A stretch of DNA of 64,000 bases from an uncultured Pseudomonadales bacterium (GTDB lineage: Bacteria > Patescibacteriota > Microgenomatia > UBA1400 > UBA1396), in contig CAZRWP010000005.1 of the NCBI GenBank assembly GCA_964603945.1, positions 432-64,431 of the forward strand, given 5' to 3'. Positions within the stretch are counted from its first letter, which is position 1, and the number at the start of each line of letters is the position of its first letter. The notes beneath the pieces are model-generated. The model made no database searches. It saw only the letters and a program-made list of their open reading frames with translations, and had not been told where the DNA came from. Position numbers and translations under genes: made by a program. Below, one piece after another: positions 2 through 64,000 of the stretch.

Positions 2-187
2 AAATATGTCAGAGCCATGCCCTTTGATACTCGACAAGAGGCGGTTAAATTTGCTAGAAATGTAGTGTCAAGATGGCGTGAAAAACCGCCGGAGATAACA
101 AGTTATAGTGGCATTAACTTAGCCTGGCAAGTAAACCCAAATGAAATAATTAGGTTGGCTGAATTAGCTGATTCACTTACTCGATAA
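2..187 (+). CDS. C-terminal fragment of a hypothetical protein (gene continues upstream of the window)
   Basis: Open frame from the window edge, ...SRWREKPPEITSYSGINLAWQVNPNEIIRLAELADSLTR, ending at TAA 185-187. No recognisable domain. Confidence 0.3.
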   Translation, partial: KYVRAMPFDTRQEAVKFARNVVSRWREKPPEITSYSGINLAWQVNPNEIIRLAELADSLTR

Positions 188-248
188 GATTGGTTAGATC
201 AATTATCTCCGTTGTGTAAGGCATTTCTTAGATAAGAACTTTTAATAT

Positions 249-806
249 TTGACTCAAGTGTATCAAACTGTAAAATACAACTCTATGAACAATCGCAATT
301 ATGATGATGGACAAAACTGGGATGATGAAAGATATGGAAGTTTTGATTGGCTTAATCCCTTAGAAAGTAATGAATCAGAAGCACATCAAGAGGGAGAAGA
401 TGAGCCAACAGGTGTAATAATGACCTTCGAATATCCGGCTGATCCGGATGAAACTTCAGATGATCCTGATTTTGAAGTCTATATGAAACGCGATTCTCAA
501 GAATTAGGCCTTTCAATTATTTGCTTCCCCACTCTTCATAGAGAAATGCATCTCTTATTGTTCCTTGATGAATCAATTGATAAAGATCCAGAACCTGATA
601 AAAACATTGGGCAATATGTTAGGCTCCAGAAATTTCTAACTTTTGAGGCCGCTGAGGAGCATGCAAAGGCTTTGATATTTGACTGGAAGCAATCGGGAGT
701 TGTTAATACTGATAAAAAAGGTAATGTCTGGGGAATTTCAGCGGCTCGCTTAATAACCGCGGCCTTAAAAAATCCCATGGAACAAGCATTCATTAATTCA
801 AATTAA
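249..806 (+). CDS. Hypothetical acidic protein (D/E-rich N-terminal half)
   Basis: 185-aa ORF with no recognisable motifs. Composition is strongly acidic (EGEDEP, DPDETSDDPDFE). Confidence 0.45.
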   Translation: MTQVYQTVKYNSMNNRNYDDGQNWDDERYGSFDWLNPLESNESEAHQEGEDEPTGVIMTFEYPADPDETSDDPDFEVYMKRDSQELGLSIICFPTLHREMHLLLFLDESIDKDPEPDKNIGQYVRLQKFLTFEAAEEHAKALIFDWKQSGVVNTDKKGNVWGISAARLITAALKNPMEQAFINSN

Positions 807-879
807 GTTAATTCGAGTTAATAGCTAAGTATTACGATTTTATTAAATTATCCCAAACCTAGCCTAACTATAATGGTTA

Positions 880-1092
880 TTGCTGTATAATTGTCTGATT
901 ATGGCAAAAAGAATTATATCTGAACCTGAACAAGCAAGAATCATGGCTAAGGCCGCAAAATCTGGCGACCCACATAAAATTGCCTTAGCTATGGCACAAC
1001 TTAACGGCCAAAGCCGAGAAGCATATCTAAATGCTATTGATGGTCAACAGCCTTGCGCTCCGTGTGAAAAGCCTTTAGACAACCTCAGATAA
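880..1092 (+). CDS. Small hypothetical protein
   Basis: 70-aa ORF (true start may be MAKR at about 901). No domain recognised. Confidence 0.3.
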   Translation: MLYNCLIMAKRIISEPEQARIMAKAAKSGDPHKIALAMAQLNGQSREAYLNAIDGQQPCAPCEKPLDNLR

Positions 1093-50991: not shown

Positions 50992-51645
50992 CTATCTCAG
51001 AAATCTCTGTAAAGCTCGCGTCGCAATCTCAACATTTTCTTTTTCGATAATAAAAGAAAACTCTGTGTAGGTAGAGATCACTTCAGTAAAGTTAATTTTG
51101 TGCACGGCCAACGCAGCTTGCAGGGTATACAGTACATTCGGTACAGCGAGATACTCTTTTGAGAAACGAACGGTAAGGCCCACTCGATCCCGATAAATAA
51201 CTTTTGGCGATTCACCAAAGTGGTGCACAATATCCTCTAAAAGTACCTGTGGCGCAACAATCGTAATTTCCGACATGCTTTGCGTTACCGTAAAAAAGGC
51301 ATTCTCATCAAGCTCAATGTGGTTATATAAACTGATCATCTGTTTACGTGCCAGCTCGGTTTTACTGAACGAAATATCACACAACGGTGATTTTATGCTC
51401 AAATCATCTATGACCACCTGAGGTCGTAACGTGGTTGAACCATTCATCTCCTGTGCGATTCGCGTCAATGCCACCACCACCGTTCCTTTTTTCACCTCTT
51501 TAAACGTTCTCGCTTCAATGGAGGGCACAATCTGTTCCGCATACGCACTGAAGTTCAACAAACCCGACTGCAGAGCCTGCAGCGCTATGTCGTCTTCCAG
51601 TACATGTGACCTGGTGGCGTCGGTAATCGTTATCATATTTGTCAT
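50992..51645 (-). CDS. Hypothetical protein, possible ACT-domain (ACT_7-like) regulatory protein
   Basis: 217 aa. The C-terminal ...VISTYTEFSFIIEKENVEIA resembles ACT_7 domain ends. This is weak motif-level evidence only. It is the first gene of the GC-richer island. Confidence 0.35.
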   Translation of the reverse strand: MTNMITITDATRSHVLEDDIALQALQSGLLNFSAYAEQIVPSIEARTFKEVKKGTVVVALTRIAQEMNGSTTLRPQVVIDDLSIKSPLCDISFSKTELARKQMISLYNHIELDENAFFTVTQSMSEITIVAPQVLLEDIVHHFGESPKVIYRDRVGLTVRFSKEYLAVPNVLYTLQAALAVHKINFTEVISTYTEFSFIIEKENVEIATRALQRFLR

Positions 51646-51747
51646 ATTTATTACAATTTATACTTTTTTGTTAAATAGTTTTAATTATTTTACATTATAT
51701 CAGTCCAAAAGTACAATCCGACGCAGACAAAGAAAAAAAGGAAACCT

Positions 51748-52650
51748 ATGTCAGCAGAACAACAACCACCAACAGGCGAAGCCGTACAAAGCTTGTACAG
51801 CGGCGTCGATCATAATGCCAGCTGGGAGCGGAGCTACAACGCAGACGGTCGGGTCTTTATAAATCCACGTCGATTGCACGAAGCTTGGGAGGAGTTTCAG
51901 CAGAACTCACAGCGCCATGGTCGCCGTCGAGCAATCATGCGGTGTTACGTGACCCAAGAGGTGCTCAATCACAGTTCTCATTTACCGATTGAAGCAGTCG
52001 TTCCCATGGGAAACGAGTACTTGATTTGGATTGGACAGAATCAACACCCTCAAGTGTCCACCCAGGGACCTTACGCGAGCCGCACACCGTCTGAGTCCAC
52101 GCCCTTACATCGTGAGTACTACCTAGATACAGAGGTCAACAGCAGCGATATAGATCAATTAATTGAGTTGTGGGGGCAGTTTGGCTGGACACCACAAGCC
52201 ATCCGTAACTTTGTACGCAACAATGCCAACGGCAACCCCATTGCCCTCATTCGCACCATGGAGCAAGAGGCCGTCGGCGTGATGATTGCCGAGTCGGCGG
52301 AGTTTGGCGCCCATCGGTTGGTCGAAATCACCGAACTGGCGGTTCATCCCGACCATCGTGGGCAACATTTGGCCAGTGTGCTGATTCGAGAACTTTCGCG
52401 ACTGAGTTTGGAACGCTGGGAAGATGCTTTGGTTTTTGGTGAATACAACCTGACCACCCGTTCATACCAATCCGCTGCCCGAGCAAGCCAACTACCAGCA
52501 GTAACCGGAAGGGTGGATGGCGTTCTCCGTGATCACGTGGGAATCACAACCGGCGAGGGAAATCAGGTGATTGCTCCATGGGACACCCAGTGGCTGCACA
52601 ACTTCCTGGTGATGTACCAACCCAACCGCCGACTCCATCGTTATCGTTAA
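51748..52650 (+). CDS. GNAT family N-acetyltransferase with about 120-aa N-terminal extension (AcuA-like?)
   Basis: Acetyl-CoA-binding motif A ELAVHPDHRGQHLASVLIRELS. RBS AAAGGAAA. High-GC codon usage. Confidence 0.55.
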   Translation: MSAEQQPPTGEAVQSLYSGVDHNASWERSYNADGRVFINPRRLHEAWEEFQQNSQRHGRRRAIMRCYVTQEVLNHSSHLPIEAVVPMGNEYLIWIGQNQHPQVSTQGPYASRTPSESTPLHREYYLDTEVNSSDIDQLIELWGQFGWTPQAIRNFVRNNANGNPIALIRTMEQEAVGVMIAESAEFGAHRLVEITELAVHPDHRGQHLASVLIRELSRLSLERWEDALVFGEYNLTTRSYQSAARASQLPAVTGRVDGVLRDHVGITTGEGNQVIAPWDTQWLHNFLVMYQPNRRLHRYR

Positions 52651-52677
52651 TGAAGTAAAAGGAACACAAGAAACACT

Positions 52678-53682
52678 ATGAACATTTATTATAACTCACT
52701 CCACCATCGACATCGGCCACCCAACGAAATCTTCAATGGCAATCGCGATCCGCACCAAGAGGTGCCAGAACGCATTGATCACATTGTCAGTGCCTTGGAG
52801 GATATCAACCATACACTCATTGACACTCAACCCAGCGAGCAAGAGCAGCAAGACCTACTCACCGTACTCCATGAACTCCACACACGTGATTACCTGGGGT
52901 ACCTCCAAAACACCGAGTTTGGGGAAGAGTGCGTGTATCCAAGTGTGTTTTCGTATCGTCCAGAGGAACCTGCCTCAACACATCCGGTGGCCCAACGCGG
53001 GTTTTTCAGTTTCGATACGTACACTCCACTCAGTAGCACAACATTCCTGGCTGCGTTGCAGTCCGCTTACTTAGCACAACGGGCAGCCCTGGAAACGCTC
53101 AGCCATACTGGAGTTCAGTACGCACTCTGCCGGCCACCTGGTCACCACGCGGAATCAGCCCGCATGGGTGGATACTGCTACCTCAATAATGGCGCGGTGG
53201 CTGCCCAGACGTTGCGTAATGCGGATGAGCAGAATCGAGTAGCAATCCTGGACGTCGATTTTCATCATGGGAATGGGGCAGAGCAGATTTTTGGCGAAAC
53301 TGAGGAAATCCTGACCGTATCTTTGCATGCCGATCCCAATGAGCGCTTCCCGTTCTTCTCTGGACAAGAAACCGATGCCTACGTGAGCAACCACAACTTT
53401 CCATTGCCACTGGGTACAACCAATGCGCAGTACGAACAGGCGCTCGATGCGGCACTCGAACGCATCCAGCAGCACCGATCGTCGCACCTGGTGGTGTGCT
53501 TTGGAGCCGATACACACCAAAGTGATCCGATCGGTGGGTTTCTGCTTACCACGGACTTTTATACAACCATGGCCCGCCACATACGGGCCTTAGGCATTCC
53601 AACCGTCATCATCCAAGAGGGTGGCTACAACACCAGTGTTCTGGGCACCAACGTCGACGCCTTTTTGGCCGGCTTTCAGTAA
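52678..53682 (+). CDS. Histone deacetylase-family protein (AcuC/acetoin-utilisation or acetylpolyamine amidohydrolase type)
   Basis: Classic HDAC motifs CRPPGHHAE, DVDFHHGNG and EGGYN. Confidence 0.85.
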   Translation: MNIYYNSLHHRHRPPNEIFNGNRDPHQEVPERIDHIVSALEDINHTLIDTQPSEQEQQDLLTVLHELHTRDYLGYLQNTEFGEECVYPSVFSYRPEEPASTHPVAQRGFFSFDTYTPLSSTTFLAALQSAYLAQRAALETLSHTGVQYALCRPPGHHAESARMGGYCYLNNGAVAAQTLRNADEQNRVAILDVDFHHGNGAEQIFGETEEILTVSLHADPNERFPFFSGQETDAYVSNHNFPLPLGTTNAQYEQALDAALERIQQHRSSHLVVCFGADTHQSDPIGGFLLTTDFYTTMARHIRALGIPTVIIQEGGYNTSVLGTNVDAFLAGFQ

Positions 53683-53698
53683 ACTTTAGAGAGTACAT

Positions 53699-55207
53699 AT
53701 GGCACAATCCAGACTTCAAACCATGCGTGACGAACGCCTCGCAAAACTGCATCAACTGCAAGCATTGGGGATTCAAACCTACCCATCACACTCCCATCGG
53801 GACTACAGCAATCAGTATGCGGTTGAGAACTCCGCGCAACTCCAAGGTCAAACCCTTTCGCTGGTTGGGCGGGTCGTGTCTTTACGCCATCATGGCAAAT
53901 TAGCCTTCATTGATATCGAAGACGCGACCGGCTCAGTGCAGCTCTACGTAAAAAGAGATGTGTTGGAGCCACTGAACACTGAGCATCAAACCCTTGGATT
54001 TGAGCAACTCCGACTCCTGGATACCGGCGATTTTATTGAAGCTCGTGGCCAGATGACCACCACCAACAGCGGTCAAGTCTCGCTCATGCCTACCCACGTT
54101 CGATTACTGACCAAAGCGCTCAGGCCGCTGCCCACCCCACGTGATTTGGCCAGTGATCCTGAGTTTTTGTTTCGCCGCCGCTACGCCGATCTCGCCACCA
54201 ATGCCAGTCAACGCGCACTCTTTACGAGAAAAGCCGCATTCTGGCAAGCCAACCGTGATTTCCTGCAGCAAAATGGCTTTTTGGAAGTACAAGTGCCGGT
54301 ACTCGAACACGTCACCGGTGGCGCCGACGCGCGACCATTTGTCACGCATATGAATGCGCTGGATCAAGACTTTTTCTTACGCATCTCCACTGAGCTGTAC
54401 CAGAAAAGGCTCATTGGCGGCGGTTTTGAAAAAATCTATACGTTCGGCCCCAACTTTCGCAACGAGGGTATCAGTGACGAGCACTTACCCGAGTACTACC
54501 AGGTGGAATGGTACTGGGCCTATGCCGACTACAACGACAACATGGCATTAGTAGAAGAAATGTTCCAGTACATCGCCCAACAGGTCTACGGTACGTGCAC
54601 ATTTACCACCCGTGGGCATACGTTCCATCTAGACCAACCGTGGGAAAGAATCAGCTATCCCGACATCATTCAGGAGCGATTTGGTGTCGACATTTTTGAA
54701 ACACCAAATGATGAAATGCTGGCAATCATCCGACAGGCCGGTGTACACCTCACCGGTGCCATCAATCGCAATCGACTGATCGACAACCTGTGGAAACTCA
54801 TCCGCAAAGATATTTCTGGTCCGGCTTTCCTCATTAACGAGCCCGCCTTTATGTCACCCTTGTCGAAATCACGCCCTGATCGACCAGAATTGACCGAACG
54901 CTTCCACGTCATTATTGCCGGCAGCGAGCTCGGGAATGGCTACTCTGAGCTCAATAATCCACTGGAGCAATTTGATCGATTTCGAGACCAACAAGGCCAG
55001 CGCGATGATGGCGATGACGAAGCCCAGATGATGGATATCGATTACGTAGAAATGTTGGAGTACGGTATGCCGCCGACTTCCGGTTACGGCCACAGCGAGC
55101 GCATCTTCTGGTTTTTAGAAGATGTCACCTCCAAACAAGGAACGCTGTTCCCACCAGTCAAACACCGAGTTTCGTCGATTACGCGAACTATCTATGGGTT
55201 CGTGTAA
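53699..55207 (+). CDS. lysS: Lysine--tRNA ligase, class II
   Basis: N-terminal OB anticodon-binding domain, motif 2 (YTFGPNFRNEG), motif 3 (GYGHSERIFWFL). 502 aa. Confidence 0.9.
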   Translation: MAQSRLQTMRDERLAKLHQLQALGIQTYPSHSHRDYSNQYAVENSAQLQGQTLSLVGRVVSLRHHGKLAFIDIEDATGSVQLYVKRDVLEPLNTEHQTLGFEQLRLLDTGDFIEARGQMTTTNSGQVSLMPTHVRLLTKALRPLPTPRDLASDPEFLFRRRYADLATNASQRALFTRKAAFWQANRDFLQQNGFLEVQVPVLEHVTGGADARPFVTHMNALDQDFFLRISTELYQKRLIGGGFEKIYTFGPNFRNEGISDEHLPEYYQVEWYWAYADYNDNMALVEEMFQYIAQQVYGTCTFTTRGHTFHLDQPWERISYPDIIQERFGVDIFETPNDEMLAIIRQAGVHLTGAINRNRLIDNLWKLIRKDISGPAFLINEPAFMSPLSKSRPDRPELTERFHVIIAGSELGNGYSELNNPLEQFDRFRDQQGQRDDGDDEAQMMDIDYVEMLEYGMPPTSGYGHSERIFWFLEDVTSKQGTLFPPVKHRVSSITRTIYGFV

Positions 55208-55397
55208 CGCTTACACATGCGGCGCAGTGGAGGGAGTGGAAGTGAAAACCTTGTTCACTTTAGACACTTGGAGATATTAGATAGGAATTGAAGCAGGTCC
55301 TAATAGCGTCTCGAACTCTACCCATTTTTCAATTTTCATGGCTATCATTTGAATAATGATATATTTTGTTATATTTAGTTAAAACAGAAAGGCTATT

Positions 55398-55649
55398 ATG
55401 CGAAATTTAAAAGTAGAGGTCGTAAAAATTCAAATCATTTGATGATCTTAATGATGACATAGATGGGATAGTTGTTGGTGAGGTTAAATACTCTTGGGAG
55501 CTCAGAAAGCAAGATAAGCAAAAAGGCGTTTTTGGATACAGAGACAGCTATGGAATATTACTCAACTATTGGCACTTAATGGAATTGCTCACTCAGCAAG
55601 AGGGTTTAAACGCCGGCCTTGAAGATTACGATAATGTGTAAATGTTTCA
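55398..55649 (+). pseudogene. Possible frameshifted small ORF remnant
   Basis: MRNLKVEVVKIQII stops at TGA. The next frame continues DDLNDDIDGIVVGEVKYSWELRKQDK...EDYDNV. AT-rich context. No homology recognised. Confidence 0.2.
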
Positions 55650-55805
55650 TTAACTCTTAACGCTAAGCTCGAGTTAGTATTATAATTCTAGGAGATGACC
55701 TTTTGTGATCATTAAAACAAAGTACTATAAGTAAATACTTGATATCCTGAGCGGGAGCTAATCGAACATATTTGTTTTAGAGTTAAATTTCAATATTCTC
55801 AATTA

Positions 55806-55834
55806 TTGACAATTTGTAGCTTGCAACCTACAAT
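55806..55834 (+). promoter_or_regulatory. Promoter (TTGACA-N17-TACAAT) with overlapping operator-like inverted repeat, upstream of the toxin-antitoxin pair
   Basis: TTGACA 55806-55811, TACAAT 55829-55834. Inverted repeat ttgtag-N8-ctacaa (55814-55833) spans the spacer and -10. Confidence 0.45.
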
Positions 55835-55846
55835 TAAGAATAAATC

Positions 55847-56174
55847 ATGGAGATCCTAAAAACCGATATTTTCGACAAATGGTTGAAGAAAATAAAGGAC
55901 AAGAAAGCCAAAGCAATTATACAAGTCAATATTAACCGGCTAATGGAAGAAAACATCGGAAAAGCAAGGTCTGTTAGCGAAGGAGTCCATGAGAAGAAAA
56001 TTAACTACGGACCAGGATATAGACTCTATTTTTATAAACCATAATCAAAACATAATAGTTTTACTTTGTGGAGGAGACAAATCAACTCAACAAAATGATA
56101 TCAAGCAAGCTAAGCTTATTAGTAAAGAGATAAATAATGATCTGAAGGGAAAATATGAAGATAACAAATTATAA
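55847..56174 (+). pseudogene. HigB-like RelE/ParE-superfamily toxin (addiction-module killer protein), disrupted by a frameshift
   Basis: N-terminal part MEILKTDIFDKWLKKIKDKKAKAII...GPGYRLYFYKP ends at TAA near 56041. The conserved C-terminal block NIIVLLCGGDKSTQQNDIKQAKLI continues in the next frame (ORF 55989-56174). Confidence 0.65.
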
Positions 56175-56427
56175 CGCCACTGACTATTTAAAAACAGAAG
56201 AAGATATTAAAGAATACCTTAACGCTTCTTTTGCAACAGGGGATAATAAGCTTATTGCCAGAGCATTGGGCGATGTAGCAAAAATTAAAGGCATGAGCAA
56301 AATTGCCAAATCAACCAAGTTGGATAGAAGTAATTTATATAACTCACTCACTGTTGATGGAGATCCAAAATTGAGCACTCTAACTAAACTGATTGAAAGC
56401 TTTGGTTATACTTTTTCAATAAAATAA
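56155..56427 (+). CDS. HigA-family antitoxin (addiction-module antidote, HTH)
   Basis: 90 aa, MKITNYNATDYLKTEEDIKEYLNASF...LGDVAKIKGMSKIAKSTKLDRSNLYNSL matches the HigA antidote family. It overlaps the end of the toxin. Confidence 0.7.
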   Translation: MKITNYNATDYLKTEEDIKEYLNASFATGDNKLIARALGDVAKIKGMSKIAKSTKLDRSNLYNSLTVDGDPKLSTLTKLIESFGYTFSIK

Positions 56428-56490
56428 CTTTCATCAGCTAAACTTTGCCAAAACTCCGATTGAAAATCATCCGATTATTTTTGATATTAT

Positions 56491-56694
56491 ATGTTAGTGC
56501 AATGGTTAGGAATATTAACAGGATTTTTTAGTGGGATGGTCTGGGAGATGATTGCCACCGCGCCTTATAAAAATCACCAAACATTAATTAATAGCATTTT
56601 GCTCGATAACTATAATAAGTTGATTCATTTACATCACTGGGTACTCTATTTTTTTTCTAATAATCCTTCTAGTCATTTGGTCTGCCCGAACTGA
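56491..56694 (+). CDS. Small hydrophobic ORF, possibly a remnant of a membrane-protein gene
   Basis: 67-aa ORF with an N-terminal hydrophobic segment. Further hydrophobic coding-like fragments follow in other frames to about 56800. Confidence 0.2.
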   Translation: MLVQWLGILTGFFSGMVWEMIATAPYKNHQTLINSILLDNYNKLIHLHHWVLYFFSNNPSSHLVCPN

Positions 56695-56858
56695 TCGTCT
56701 CTTTCATCCTGCTGTTTTAATGATTATTTTCTTTTTATTGGGTGCCATCGCTTTCAATTATTATAAATATCAGGATTTTTTTATCTTTTTAAAGTAGTCC
56801 AATATCAATTAATACTTTCAAATGTATCCGTTAAGCAATTACCTGCTAAAATTCCTTT

Positions 56859-57395
56859 GTGATAACTAAAACTAATCATATAAAAACAAATTCGCTCTTT
56901 GGAAATCTTCATCGACCCCAACACGTTTTGATTGTCTTGATTGATCAGGACGGTAACTTTCTTTTAGGTCATAAGCCAAATTTTTACCCAAGCGGCATTT
57001 ACCGTTTTGTAGGTGGTGGTGTAAAGAAGGATGAGGAACCAGACACAGCAGTTGAACGAGAATTTGAAGAAGAGCTTGGTCTCAAGCCATGCCAACAAAA
57101 ACTTAAATTTCTGGCTCAGGTGAATACGATTGCTAACTATAACAACCAAGAATATACAAACCAAACGTTTCTGTATCTATATCAACTTGATGGCGAAGAA
57201 GCATTCAAAGCTGGCGATGACATTGAAGATTTAATTAATTTTACTCCCTTGGAGCTTCAAGAACTAATTTATGATTACTATAAACTAGATGATGATAACT
57301 GGTTTATTGTTAATGGCGAACCAATTCACTGCTGGTCAGATTACGGAAAAATGTATGGCTATATACATCAAGTGGCTCTGGACTTAGTTAGTTAA
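56859..57395 (+). CDS. NUDIX hydrolase
   Basis: Nudix box GGGVKKDEEPDTAVEREFEEELGL (GX5EX7REUXEEXGU). Confidence 0.8.
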   Translation: MITKTNHIKTNSLFGNLHRPQHVLIVLIDQDGNFLLGHKPNFYPSGIYRFVGGGVKKDEEPDTAVEREFEEELGLKPCQQKLKFLAQVNTIANYNNQEYTNQTFLYLYQLDGEEAFKAGDDIEDLINFTPLELQELIYDYYKLDDDNWFIVNGEPIHCWSDYGKMYGYIHQVALDLVS

Positions 57396-57544: not shown

Positions 57545-58105
57545 GTGAAGTTAGCTTTTATCCCAACAGCAGCCAACGTCGAAGCTGGTGACAAGCATTG
57601 GATGATTGATGACTTTAATAATTGCCGCCAAGCTGGACTGGAAATTGATATCGTTGATATCTCTGCAACTGCTAAAGATGTCTGGCTACCAAGAATTCAA
57701 ACTACAGAAGTTTTGCTTTTTGGTGGCGGCAACACTTTTCATCTTAGACATTGGCTGAAAAAGTCGGGTCTTGAGGAAATATTGCCCGATTTACTTAAAT
57801 CTAGAGTTTATGTTGGTATCAGTGCCGGAAGCTGTATCGTTGGACCTACAATCTATAATTCCGTTCAAAATTTGTTTGGTGAAAAGTATGAATTAGAGAT
57901 AAAAGATGGATTAGGATTAGTTAGTCTCCAATTTATTCTCCATCTCAACTCAGATTATTTTGTTAAAATCCGCAAGGAAAATCTTAAAGTGGCGTCAAAG
58001 GATATCAAGGAGCCAGTCTATGCCTTGGACGATCAATCAGCTCTAATAGTTAATAACCAAGAAATCGAGGTCGTCAGTGAAGGTACTTGGTATCGTTTTA
58101 ACTAA
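57545..58105 (+). CDS. Peptidase S51 family (peptidase E/cyanophycinase-like); N-terminal 19 codons cut off by an in-frame TAG
   Basis: GISAGSCIVG nucleophile-serine motif, FGGGNTFHL. The ORF as given starts at GTG 57545. In-frame upstream ATG 57458 encodes the conserved family N-terminus MKLLLTSAGLSNQSIVKAL, followed by TAG at 57515-57517. Confidence 0.7.
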   Translation: MKLAFIPTAANVEAGDKHWMIDDFNNCRQAGLEIDIVDISATAKDVWLPRIQTTEVLLFGGGNTFHLRHWLKKSGLEEILPDLLKSRVYVGISAGSCIVGPTIYNSVQNLFGEKYELEIKDGLGLVSLQFILHLNSDYFVKIRKENLKVASKDIKEPVYALDDQSALIVNNQEIEVVSEGTWYRFN

Positions 58106-60629: not shown

Positions 60630-61358
60630 TCACTCAGTGGTCAAGCGCCAGAGGGTTTGAGCGAGCGTATTCATAAACAAATGCCTACTTTTCACAGTTT
60701 CCGGATCAAGTTCTTCAAACCTAAGTCTAACATTGCGTCTAACCGGTCGTTGTAGCCTCTTAAATGATCTAATCATTTCAGCCAGTGCATCCGTCCCACC
60801 TTTATGCGGATTGTAGCCATTCTCGTAGACAATTCCCAGAGCAAATACTGGCGCATCTAATTGTCGAGCAATGAATTCGGTGCCTCGCTTTAAGCCAACT
60901 GTGATTTCATCCAAACTACTTGCTAAACCAGCCCTGGTTCCTTGCGGATAAACAACAACGTGACTCTGTTTTTCCTCCATTACCCGTTTTGCTTGATTAA
61001 TCTCCGCTAACAAACTATCGCGAGTTACATTATCTCTCGTTATCGGCAAAATATTTAAACAAAGCGAAAGAACTAATCCCTTCCACCAAACGTCATAGAA
61101 AGTATCGCTAGCGGCTAAATAGTAAATTCTCTCACTACCTGGCATTAGAAACGAATTTAAGTGTTCACCGTGCGGATAGGGCAGAATCAATGACGGAGTA
61201 GAAGGAAAAGAACCTTCTGTCTCAACTTTATAATTGGCCAACTCAAGTAATAGCAAACGCATCAAGGGTTGTGACCATACGGAAATATATTCCGGGAATT
61301 TTGGCTCTTTATAAAATGAGCTATTAGTTAATTTTTCTAAAATACTTCTTTTACCCAT
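60630..61358 (-). CDS. PlsC-family acyltransferase-like protein with degenerate HX4D motif
   Basis: Block III VVVYPQGTRAG matches FPEGTR. No canonical HX4D is present near the N-terminus (PYPHGEHLNS). Confidence 0.45.
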   Translation of the reverse strand: MGKRSILEKLTNSSFYKEPKFPEYISVWSQPLMRLLLLELANYKVETEGSFPSTPSLILPYPHGEHLNSFLMPGSERIYYLAASDTFYDVWWKGLVLSLCLNILPITRDNVTRDSLLAEINQAKRVMEEKQSHVVVYPQGTRAGLASSLDEITVGLKRGTEFIARQLDAPVFALGIVYENGYNPHKGGTDALAEMIRSFKRLQRPVRRNVRLRFEELDPETVKSRHLFMNTLAQTLWRLTTE

Positions 61359-61425: not shown

Positions 61426-61824
61426 ATGCACGGCTTTATAACAGACATCGAACAGGAAACAGTTGCCAACACGGCTTTTCGCAAGGTTTTATACACTGGT
61501 CGGCATAGTCAGCTGGTTTTAATGTCACTTAAGCCAGGCGAAGACATTGACTTGGAAATACACAACGACAACGACCAGTTTTTCCGCTTTGAGCAAGGTG
61601 AGGGAATTTGTTTCATAGATAGTCATGAGCATAAGGTTAAAGACGGCTCGGCGGTGGTGATTCCTGCCGGAGCAGAGCACAACATCCTCAACACCTCTAA
61701 AACAGAAGACCTTAAGATATATACCATCTACAGCCCGCCCCATCACCAAGATGGAATCATTCGCCAGACCAAATCTGAGGCAGTAGAGAATGAGGCAGAT
61801 TTTGATGGTGTCACCACAGAATAA
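61426..61824 (+). CDS. Cupin domain protein
   Basis: Two-motif cupin pattern (LEIHNDNDQFF...GE ; VVIPAGAEHNILN). Confidence 0.65.
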   Translation: MHGFITDIEQETVANTAFRKVLYTGRHSQLVLMSLKPGEDIDLEIHNDNDQFFRFEQGEGICFIDSHEHKVKDGSAVVIPAGAEHNILNTSKTEDLKIYTIYSPPHHQDGIIRQTKSEAVENEADFDGVTTE

Positions 61825-61991
61825 TCCTTATCTTTGACAATAATATTTATATATCCTACTAATTTGCCCATATAGCATCTTTTTGCTATACTATATAGGT
61901 TGGTATAGCGATAGATTTGTTTCTCTTAGCCTTAATTCTAGACTCTAACTGACATTTTTTTAATTTACAGGCCAAGAGGACGAAAGATTTT

Positions 61992-63086
61992 ATGCATGAA
62001 GTTAGAAACACTAGTACAAAATTGTTAGTTAAAGCGGCTAAGGATCTTGGATTGCACGTAAAAGTGCTCTCAAGCAATCGAAGTTTTATTAAAGTCTCTT
62101 CAAGTCGGCAATCAATGTATATTCAGGCAACTTCCGTTCCTCTTAACAACCAAGTGGCGGCCAGAATTGCCAGTAATAAATTTTTCACTAAAAAAGTATT
62201 AGCAGAACATGACGTTCCTATTTTAAAAAGTTGGCTCGTTCGTAAAAAAAGCGAGGCACTAAAAATTGTTGAAAAACATCAGCCATTTCCGTTGGTCTTG
62301 AAGCCAACCCAAGGATCCCATGGAGATGATGTTTACGTTAATATCGAGAACATTGAAGAATTAAAGCCATTATTGGACAGAGTATTAAAAGGCTCGCCCG
62401 AAGATGGTTATCTAATTGAAAAATATTTTGCTGGTCGGGACTTGCGAGTTTCCGTGGTAGGCGACCAAGCTGTGGCCGTTTTAGAAAGAATCCCAGCTCA
62501 TGTGATTGGGGATGGCAAACATACCATTCGCCAGTTGGTTAAGAAATTTAATCAGCACCCCTTGGTTGGCGAAGGCTATGAAAAACCAATTTGCAAAATT
62601 CACCTAGATGCTGAGGCTAAAAGGATTTTAAACAAGCAACAGTTGACACCTTCCTCTGTGCCAGACAAAAACGTTAAAGTGTTTCTTCGGCACAATGCCA
62701 ACATCAGTACCGGCGGAATTGGACAAGATGTTACTGATGAAATCCCCACTAAAATTAAAAATATAGCCGTTTCAGCTAGTCAGGCAGTTGGTTTGGAAGT
62801 ATGTGGTGTTGATTTACTCTATGATGACATTACCGACTCAGCCGTTGTTCTAGAACTTAACGATGTGGCTGGTATTGATGTTCATCACTATCCAGTGATC
62901 GGGCAAGCCAGAGACGTGGCTGGCGCCATCATGAAACATTTATTTGCTGAATCGTTAGAGCAGTCTTCGGAAAACTCCCATAGTCTAAGACGTGACTTTA
63001 TGTCGATTTTCCATCACAATAACGATCAGTCAGATTATGTTTCTAAAGTTCGTCGACCCAGCCCTGCTAAACAAATTCGCAGTTGA
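61992..63086 (+). CDS. Stand-alone ATP-grasp ligase homologous to the ATP-grasp domain of cyanophycin synthetase CphA
   Basis: Strong block similarity to the CphA ATP-grasp core: LKPTQGSHGDDVYV, RVSVVGDQAVAVLERIPAHVIGDGKHTIRQL, LRHNANISTGG, GLEVCGVDLL. Lacks the CphA N-domain and the Mur-ligase domains. Confidence 0.7.
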   Translation: MHEVRNTSTKLLVKAAKDLGLHVKVLSSNRSFIKVSSSRQSMYIQATSVPLNNQVAARIASNKFFTKKVLAEHDVPILKSWLVRKKSEALKIVEKHQPFPLVLKPTQGSHGDDVYVNIENIEELKPLLDRVLKGSPEDGYLIEKYFAGRDLRVSVVGDQAVAVLERIPAHVIGDGKHTIRQLVKKFNQHPLVGEGYEKPICKIHLDAEAKRILNKQQLTPSSVPDKNVKVFLRHNANISTGGIGQDVTDEIPTKIKNIAVSASQAVGLEVCGVDLLYDDITDSAVVLELNDVAGIDVHHYPVIGQARDVAGAIMKHLFAESLEQSSENSHSLRRDFMSIFHHNNDQSDYVSKVRRPSPAKQIRS

Positions 63087-63786
63087 AAGCCTGACGTCTG
63101 GACTTTCGGTGGCGGCTGTATCCGCTTTAAGTAACCGCAAATTAAAAGTAAAATCCAACGGATCTATATCCTCATCTGGACCGCAATTAGTTATTTGCAA
63201 TCATCCAAGTGCAATCGATGGCTTGATTTTGATGTCAGTTATTAACCGACCTGATTTTTATATAGTAGCGGCCAAAACGAATCAAGTTTTTGGCTCATCT
63301 TTTACCAAACAAATGCTGCCGGTATATTTGTCAAATTTGCCCAAACATCAGTTTATTGATTATCTTAGAGTGCCGGTTGTAACCCAAATGGAAGGCAACA
63401 TTTCCCGTAAAGAAGCAATGAGCCGCAATCGGGCAAGCATTTCTCAAGCCGCTGAGAAAGTAAACGATGGACACAGCGTAATTATCTTTCCTGGCGGAGC
63501 CAATCCCTCGCAAGATATGAGCTGGAAAGTAGGTATCGGCTTTTTGATCAAAGCTGTAACTAAACCTGATCTAGAAATTGTTTTGGCTAATATTACTGGC
63601 ACTGATTGGCTTGATTCAATACGTCCAACTATTTTGGGACGACCCTCACCACTTATTCCTAATAAAGAAATTGTTGTTAATTTCAAGAAATTATCACTAA
63701 ATAATCTGGATTCTAATTTAAGTGGAAAATCATTGGCTAGGCAAGTAGAAAGTATATATCGTTTGAGTTGGCAAGACCAGGTTTAA
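63037..63786 (+). CDS. PlsC-family (lysophospholipid) acyltransferase
   Basis: Motif I HX4D in LVICNHPSAIDGLILM. Block III degenerate as IIFPGGANPS. Overlaps the 3' end of the ATP-grasp gene by about 50 nt in another frame. Confidence 0.6.
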   Translation: MFLKFVDPALLNKFAVESLTSGLSVAAVSALSNRKLKVKSNGSISSSGPQLVICNHPSAIDGLILMSVINRPDFYIVAAKTNQVFGSSFTKQMLPVYLSNLPKHQFIDYLRVPVVTQMEGNISRKEAMSRNRASISQAAEKVNDGHSVIIFPGGANPSQDMSWKVGIGFLIKAVTKPDLEIVLANITGTDWLDSIRPTILGRPSPLIPNKEIVVNFKKLSLNNLDSNLSGKSLARQVESIYRLSWQDQV

Positions 63787-63840
63787 TTGCCATTGCAATA
63801 GTGTTAAGTTGGAACAAATAGTTTAGGAAGACTAATACTA

Positions 63841-64000
63841 TGGCGATTACTATTCGAGAAGCAAGACGTACTTATAAAGATAGACTACCAACCAGAGATC
63901 AAAATGTTTGGCATAATTACAATCAACAAGTAGAGTCAACTATTGAATTTGAACAAAGATTGGCTGAATTTGAGGCTGAATTTTTTGATATTTTATCCAG
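63841..64000 (+). CDS. N-terminal fragment of a hypothetical protein (runs off window)
   Basis: RBS AGGAAG then MAITIREARRTYKDRLPTRDQNVWHNY... open to the window end. Confidence 0.35.

Follow-up and report, generated by a model that had tools for sequence, protein, structure and literature searches.

A stand-alone ATP-grasp ligase of a mainly patescibacterial family and its overlapping PlsC-family neighbour: probable inheritance of gene order without a shared pathway

Towards the 3' end of the stretch of contig CAZRWP010000005.1 (assembly GCA_964603945.1) analysed here, 64,000 nucleotides in length and referred to as the window, the gene of a 364-amino-acid ATP-grasp ligase (61992..63086, forward strand) overlaps the gene of a 249-amino-acid acyltransferase of the PlsC/lysophospholipid acyltransferase (LPLAT) family (63037..63786, forward strand; AT_down), and the locus raises the question of whether the two enzymes serve one pathway or are neighbours only. 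The preliminary description of this DNA had read the pair as a coupled system for a modified lipid, with a cyanophycin-like function as another option. The answer favoured here, and held to be likely, is that an uncharacterised stand-alone ligase and a separate PlsC/LPLAT enzyme are adjacent by inherited gene order and share no pathway. The two genes were found adjacent in three close lineages, split at one related locus (L039) and without any acyltransferase beside the ligase at five further close and about 20 distant loci, on which account the proposed coupling was not upheld. The importance of the locus as a lipid-peptide system is therefore limited, and its real interest lies in the ligase family, marked by an invariant aspartate (Asp296 in the window ligase).

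Both open reading frames (ORFs) have conserved homologues and are therefore real genes, not chance ORFs. The ligase displays the marks of the ATP-grasp superfamily, namely Pfam matches (69 bits to the general RimK ATP-grasp domain PF08443), the predicted fold, the ATP-binding Lys, the Asp/Glu/Asn Mg triad and the acyl-phosphate-stabilising Arg, and its motifs include RIPAHVIGDGKHTIRQL at residues 166-182, NISTGG at 237-242 and GVDLL at 272-276. On the cyanophycin synthetase model TIGR02068 (862 positions) it covers positions 159-474 only, with an E-value of 1.3e-85 and 288 bits against a cut-off of 850, and its best solved-structure match in a sequence search comprises residues 165-483 of TeCphA1 (7WAC; E 5.9e-52). 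By both matches the ORF contains neither an N domain nor a Mur-ligase (M) domain, in agreement with the earlier statements that it corresponds to the ATP-grasp domain of CphA alone and that the Mur-ligase half is absent. The scores were 277 bits for NF010623 (cut-off 877), 237.6 bits for the GshF model NF002688, of which only positions 433-754 of 756 were covered (cut-off 425), 145 bits for the Ngg synthetase model TIGR03103 (cut-off 569) and 98 bits for the RimK family model TIGR00768 (cut-off 143); none of the curated NCBIfam models reached its cut-off with the ligase. Among solved structures, the CphA1 G-domains were followed by GshF (3LN7, 1.5e-39) and then by CphA2, with RimK, LysX and Ddl far behind. 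The AlphaFold model of the ligase (predicted local distance difference test, pLDDT, 81, falling below 50 at residues 329-364) retrieved TeCphA1 as the top Foldseek match with a template-modelling (TM) score of 0.73, GshF with 0.66 and RimK structures with about 0.45-0.50. CphA, rather than an enzyme of the RimK or glutathione-synthetase type, was thus confirmed as the best homologue, at 288 bits vs 237 for GshF and 98 for RimK, the order by structure being the same.

Like the G domain of CphA1 (TeCphA1 7WAC/7WAE, SuCphA1 7LG5), to which it is 30-34% identical over about 320 residues, the ligase has the ATP-grasp fold with a G-omega insertion; unlike CphA1, it lacks the N and M domains and belongs to a stand-alone family of proteins of about 330 amino acids, found mainly in Patescibacteria. 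A homology search returned 388 homologues, the best 120 of which are all stand-alone proteins of 307-364 amino acids; PF01553 was present in none of these 120, so no ligase/acyltransferase fusion occurs among them. The named sources and 24 genome loci of the family are almost all metagenome-assembled genomes (MAGs) of Patescibacteria, including Roizman-, Shapiro-, Beckwith- and Andersenbacteria and Saccharibacteria, together with a few Bathyarchaeia. The window DNA itself resembles Patescibacteria genomes, being gene-dense with many small ORF overlaps and four tRNAs. Within the ligase, a conserved catalytic core (residues 1-321; 61992..62954, forward strand), confident in the predicted model, is followed by a variable C-terminal tail (residues 322-364; 62955..63083, forward strand) that is predicted to be disordered and shows no conservation in the family alignment. 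Judged from these homologues, the ligase is no isolated truncation but a stand-alone protein with the CphA G-domain as a relative, and its large, uncharacterised family would form a third branch, next to those of the cyanophycin synthetase G-domain and the GshF ATP-grasp module. The literature on stand-alone or truncated CphA-like ATP-grasp enzymes in the Candidate Phyla Radiation (CPR) yielded nothing relevant.

The residues of the ligase were mapped through the 7WAC alignment onto the roles described for TeCphA1 (PMC9427784), and their conservation was tallied over 120 family members. The catalytic and substrate-pocket residues are K104, H110, R152, R166, N237, S239, D274, E288, N290, G294 and the family-specific D296. 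Ligase K104, H110, R152, D274, E288 and G294 correspond to TeCphA1 K261, H267, R309, D431, E450 and G456 and are kept in 118-120 of the 120 members; the pocket residues R166, N237 and S239, equivalent to TeCphA1 R323, N394 and S396, which contact the beta-carboxylate of Asp (PMC9427784), are likewise conserved. Two further residues are needed for TeCphA1 to be active, Glu215, to which the cyanophycin primer is bound by its Arg side chain, and Arg458, which holds the incoming Asp by its alpha-carboxylate (PMC9427784). The position of Glu215 is occupied by Arg58 in the window ligase and by F, M, L, I or R in the family, with Glu in none of the 120 members, and the position of Arg458 is Asp in all 120, the family motif reading GID[IV]HH[YF]P where CphA1 has GFRMHVAP. 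In GshF, the positions of His267, Glu215 and Arg458 hold Tyr/Phe, Leu and Met/Tyr, respectively (PMC9427784), and the alignment with 3LN7 placed Met opposite Asp296. The Asp296 signature extends to Andersenbacteria members of about 39% identity and is gone in a subfamily of 30-34% identity that occurs in tandem with RimK-type ligases. Since the Glu215 and Arg458 positions are replaced throughout the family, its members would be neither cyanophycin synthetases nor glutathione synthetases, and at its specificity positions the family is, by alignment, neither CphA-like nor GshF-like. The invariant Asp at the Arg458 position points to a nucleophile with a cationic group, or to one without a carboxylate at that site; the ligase nucleophile plausibly differs from both Asp and Gly, with a positive charge or no carboxylate at the site.

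The acyltransferase AT_down belongs to a small and divergent stand-alone subfamily. Its similarity to PlsC/LPLAT enzymes, including OlsA and OlsF (PF01553), lies in the HX4D (NHPSAID) and FPGG blocks, with block III reading IFPGG, and in a PF01553 score of 37.8 bits, above the cut-off of 23; it differs from them in falling far under every NCBIfam cut-off, with 27.8 bits vs 103 for TIGR00530 (AGPAT), 15.3 vs 300 for NF052553 (OlsA) and 22.1 vs 620 for NF052615 (OlsF). Its N-terminus (MFLKF...) aligns with that of the L027 orthologue (MFLQF...), and this alignment, which also includes L029, places the start at the ATG at 63037. Among 1.84 billion representatives, an exhaustive HMMER search, which took over from a word-indexed search that had returned two proteins with the single sequence and four with a profile, gave nine matches at E<=1e-30, 97 at <=1e-10 and 277 at <=1e-3; the 150 matches listed all measure 98-333 amino acids and include no ATP-grasp fusion. 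A metagenome pattern scan with AT_down found only three loci, near-identical or already known, and a sequence search of solved structures gave no relative, only one spurious tail-fibre match (E 0.024). AT_down has no clear transmembrane helix, and nothing relevant was found in the literature on PlsC in Patescibacteria. From the preserved blocks we infer an active LPLAT-type enzyme acting on lipids, one that plausibly re-acylates scavenged lysolipids.

The ligase and AT_down are directly adjacent only in three close lineages, namely the species of the window, L034 and L027. In the window's species, the order is AT_up on the reverse strand (a second, PlsC-like gene described below), followed on the forward strand by cupin, ATP-grasp, AT_down, an ORF of about 149 amino acids and Sua5; L034 (ligase identity 75%) has ATP-grasp and AT_down; L027 (64%) has AT_up, orf516 and Ham1 on the reverse strand, followed by ATP-grasp, AT_down and Sua5. 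No acyltransferase stands near the ligase at the loci of five other close relatives (53-61%) or at about 20 more distant ones: L038 (61%) shows Ham1 on the reverse strand, ATP-grasp and, farther on, Sua5; L030 (57%) has ATP-grasp overlapping a methyltransferase; L042 (57%) ATP-grasp, an 80-amino-acid ORF and Sua5; L003 (56%) Ham1 on the reverse strand directly upstream, ATP-grasp and Sua5; and L001 (56%) Ham1 likewise, ATP-grasp, an 80-amino-acid ORF and Sua5. At L039 (55%), ATP-grasp is followed by two opposite-strand genes, an orf516-like gene and Ham1, and only then by an AT_down orthologue (43%), orf162 and Sua5; the two opposite-strand genes place the ligase and the acyltransferase in different transcription units, the latter heading a unit with orf162 and Sua5. 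In the window's species, L027 and L039, Sua5 follows AT_down on the same strand, either immediately or after one small ORF. AT_down relatives at 36-42% identity have other neighbours, namely enolase (L035), a response regulator (L036) and a Y-family polymerase fragment (L041). By tblastn, neither acyltransferase was found within about 6 kb at 26 ligase-family loci, and an unbiased clustering of neighbours over 27 loci revealed no conserved partner of the ligase. The ligase neighbours that do recur are mutually unrelated (Ham1, Sua5, CarD_C-like, RRM, a CsoR-type repressor, Fic, NUDIX and ABC-F), and the last six of these, which recur beside mid-distance members, were discarded as a functional clue for want of a common theme. 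In a neighbour-joining tree, the window and L027, both with adjacent genes, are sister to a group holding L039 and the loci without acyltransferase, all in one clade; as adjacent, split and acyltransferase-less loci share this clade, the ligase appears to be retained regardless of an acyltransferase in the locus. The neighbourhood comparison, run for relatives of either gene, therefore did not support the conserved adjacency that had been supposed.

The junction of the two genes is equally variable. The overlap of about 50 nucleotides out of frame that had been noted earlier was found to be exactly 50 nucleotides (63037..63086, forward strand), read in a different frame by each gene; the ligase and AT_down overlap by 38 nucleotides in L034 and are separated by a gap of 68 nucleotides in L027, where the ligase tail is shorter. 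In L030 the ligase gene overlaps the methyltransferase by 41 nucleotides, and in L035 the AT_down relative overlaps enolase by 35 nucleotides; unrelated genes thus commonly overlap by tens of nucleotides in these genomes, and the 50-nucleotide overlap carries little functional weight. A programmed frameshift and a ligase/acyltransferase fusion were both rejected, given the varying junction and the lack of fused proteins. A promoter-like TTGCCC-17-TATACT with TG (61864-61892) and a Shine-Dalgarno-like AAGAGGA (61974-61980) precede the ligase ATG (61864..61980, forward strand), and the consensus scan found no terminator-like site between the ligase and AT_down; the number of sites in this promoter and terminator scan did not exceed the shuffle expectation, so both results are weak indications only.

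Several points weigh against the favoured reading. Every close AT_down type found (at least 50% identity; three lineages) immediately follows the ligase gene on the same strand, no terminator-like site intervening, AT_up is also kept nearby in L027, and at L039 the ligase and the AT_down orthologue are still separated by only about 2 kb. No Shine-Dalgarno sequence is obvious ahead of AT_down itself, which makes co-transcription likely, and the two genes are probably co-transcribed in the window. The absence of the acyltransferase in relatives refers to the loci, and it may sit elsewhere in those genomes; the neighbour-joining tree carries no support values; and the substrates ascribed to the ligase and AT_down derive from homology.

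These points bear most directly on a clade-specific two-enzyme pathway, in which the ligase and AT_down, possibly with AT_up, would be co-transcribed and act in sequence to yield either an amino acid or peptide in acylated form or a lipid decorated with an amino acid, and which is considered unlikely. A precedent for such a partnership exists in the N-acetylglutaminylglutamine synthetase Ngg (TIGR03103; 145 bits with the ligase), where an acyltransferase works with a related ATP-grasp module; that acyltransferase is a fused GNAT, whereas a separate PlsC-family enzyme is present here and no fusion was found among the 120 ligase and 150 acyltransferase matches listed. The shared strand, the overlap and the lack of a terminator-like site between the genes, together with adjacency in L034 and L027, the small and divergent AT_down subfamily and the retention of AT_up in L027, are all consistent with a pathway, but L039 has both genes in a decoupled state, the five close and about 20 distant ligase loci lack an acyltransferase, the neighbours of acyltransferase relatives are unrelated, the junction is not conserved, and the unrelated housekeeping genes Ham1 and Sua5 stand in the same block. 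Moreover, the catalytic residues and the Asp296 signature are unchanged between members with and without an adjacent acyltransferase. In a bolder version, the Asp296 proteins, widespread in Patescibacteria, would be a functionally new third CphA-G/GshF class that joins a cationic or non-carboxylate nucleophile into an unknown peptide or amide, and in the sub-clade of the window the ligase would have been recruited to an operon with a rare PlsC-like acyltransferase, forming an as yet undescribed pathway to an acylated peptide or an amino-acid lipid; this version is considered quite unlikely.

The remaining alternatives concern the product of the ligase itself. A minimal cyanophycin-like or poly-Asp system would have the G-domain polymerise Asp or extend a cyanophycin-type primer, with an S51 peptidase degrading the product. 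CphA1 is the best characterised homologue, the Asp beta-carboxylate contacts (R166, N237, S239) and the CphA-type P-loop His267 (H110) are conserved, and many family members are named cyanophycin synthetase by the Joint Genome Institute (JGI), but the polymer-holding N domain and the M domain are missing, Glu215 and Arg458 are replaced family-wide, and the 288 bits are far under the cut-off of 850. The S51-family peptidase that the preliminary description had placed 4 kb upstream is indeed present (57545..58105, forward strand; PF03575 91 bits), 3.9 kb from the ligase with genes on both strands between, and was judged to be outside the feature; its link to cyanophycinase or peptidase E was not sustained, as it scored 22 bits vs 126.6 with cyanophycinase TIGR02069 and 47 vs 156 with PepE NF003642. 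No S51 peptidase was found in any related ligase locus examined, and it was rejected as a cyanophycinase partner. For want of support from the Glu215 and Arg458 positions, both replaced, and from the S51 gene, absent from related loci, the cyanophycin-like function is rated highly improbable. The same very low probability is given to a stand-alone GshF-type synthetase of glutathione or a related thiol tripeptide, which would add Gly to gamma-Glu-Cys obtained from the host or from another enzyme. GshF (GshAB), whose C-terminal module is represented by 3LN6 and 3LN7, is the second-best relative (237 bits, E 1.5e-39, TM 0.66), and, like most family members, it has a hydrophobic residue in place of Glu215, although the window ligase has Arg there; the ligase nonetheless lacks a GshA (gamma-glutamylcysteine ligase) domain, carries a P-loop His where GshF has Tyr/Phe and the invariant Asp where GshF has Met/Tyr, scores below the cut-off of 425 bits, and no gamma-glutamylcysteine ligase gene was seen in the loci examined. 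A RimK-like tail ligase, which would extend a specific protein or ribosomal peptide by amino acids at its C-terminus, is very unlikely. CphA, GshF and RimK all extend a C-terminal carboxylate, and the distant paralogues of 30-34% identity do lie in tandem with RimK and ATPgrasp_ST + Zn_protease genes, but those paralogues are without the Asp296 signature, no conserved small-protein or precursor gene stands beside family members, and RimK is much more distant from the ligase than CphA or GshF.

Under the favoured reading of two enzymes joined by gene order alone, the ligase, by homology with CphA and GshF, would phosphorylate an amino acid or small peptide at its terminal carboxylate, with Lys104, Asp274 and Glu288 holding Mg-ATP and His110 and Arg152 stabilising the acyl-phosphate, which an amine nucleophile would then attack. 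Both the cyanophycin/Asp pair and the gamma-Glu-Cys/Gly pair would be excluded as substrates. The adjacency and overlap would represent gene order inherited in a compact genome, where Ham1, ATP-grasp, acyltransferase, small ORF and Sua5 make up one housekeeping block; the variable, disordered tail of the ligase, whose length sets the overlap with the next gene, would produce that overlap, which would be no evidence of a common pathway.

At least 120 stand-alone CphA-G/GshF-like ligases combine an unimpaired active site with an invariant Arg-to-Asp switch in their nucleophile pocket, and no curated model or paper was found for them. The product of the ligase, once identified, would enlarge the very sparse biochemistry of the CPR. 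Many stand-alone members of about 320 amino acids (P0017, P0022, P0033, P0070 and others) carry the name 'cyanophycin synthetase' in JGI annotation. Such a label can mislead CPR metabolic reconstructions, for example in claims of cyanophycin storage, against which the residue evidence argues. Among the 21 Saccharimonadia MAGs of a 2026 preprint, a 'cyanophycin synthetase' is counted in five and an S51 dipeptidase E in 13 (10.64898/2026.09.16.751625).

L024 (2680-6996; Micromonosporaceae MAG VSBZ01000012.1) encodes a maximal ORF of 1438 amino acids with a PGA_cap/CapA domain (residues 391-654) and a C-terminal ATP-grasp domain carrying the signature of the window family as GIDIHHFP. As this genome is high in GC, the ORF may be a true fusion or two in-frame genes; by its domain content, the ORF hints at a link of the signature to poly-amino-acid or capsule chemistry. 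The ligase paralogues of 30-34% identity at L021 (3496-8204), L023 (2899-5600) and L026 (4287-6918), in tandem with RimK-type and ATPgrasp_ST + Zn_protease genes, lie downstream of YebC and RuvC in Patescibacteria MAGs and have Ala or Met at the Asp296 position.

Directly upstream of the ligase gene and beyond it, the motif-degenerate second PlsC-like gene and the cupin reported in the preliminary description were both recovered. AT_up, a PlsC-like acyltransferase of 242 amino acids (60630..61358, reverse strand), has a block I that is degenerate (HGEHLN, HX4N) and a PQGTR block that is intact, and reached 26.2 bits with PF01553 against the cut-off of 23, from profile positions 39-131 only. 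It lacks the HX4D dyad, having HX4N in its place, identically in the L027 orthologue (179-949, reverse strand; 40% identity). In this pair the block PHGEHLNSFL is identical and the PQGTR block is kept as PQGTR and AQGTR; because the same block is preserved in both genomes at 40% overall identity, the alignment suggests that the variant motif is not decaying but kept by selection. The small cupin (Cupin_2; 132 amino acids; 61426..61824, forward strand; PF07883 51 bits) lies directly upstream of the ligase gene. Among about 27 loci, cupin homologues were found near the ligase gene in two others only, adjacent in L017 (5115-5507, 52% identity) and 2 kb off in L020 (8957-9307, 45%), both otherwise distant Patescibacteria loci; this recurrence is too rare for a conserved partner of the ligase, and the cupin was dismissed as such.

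Downstream of AT_down, an ORF of about 149 amino acids (63840..64000, forward strand) is present with its start only and runs off the window; it was completed from the translation and a tblastn search of L032, a locus of the same species, in which Sua5 follows. In L032 (745-1191), this ORF, between AT_down and Sua5, is rich in charged residues, and the slot between ligase or AT_down and Sua5 holds unrelated small ORFs in relatives, of 80 amino acids in L001, L042 and L038 and of 162 in L039. Farther upstream in the window, positions 51500-55200 form an island of 52-53% GC in a context of 32-44% GC, containing a GNAT gene (51748-52650), a histone-deacetylase-family gene (52678-53682) and a class-II lysyl-tRNA synthetase gene (53699-55207), and the island is followed by a stretch of 32% GC (55200-57000) with an HI1420-type antitoxin ORF (56155-56427). 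The GC contrast across 51500-57000 may represent horizontally acquired DNA or an assembly join.

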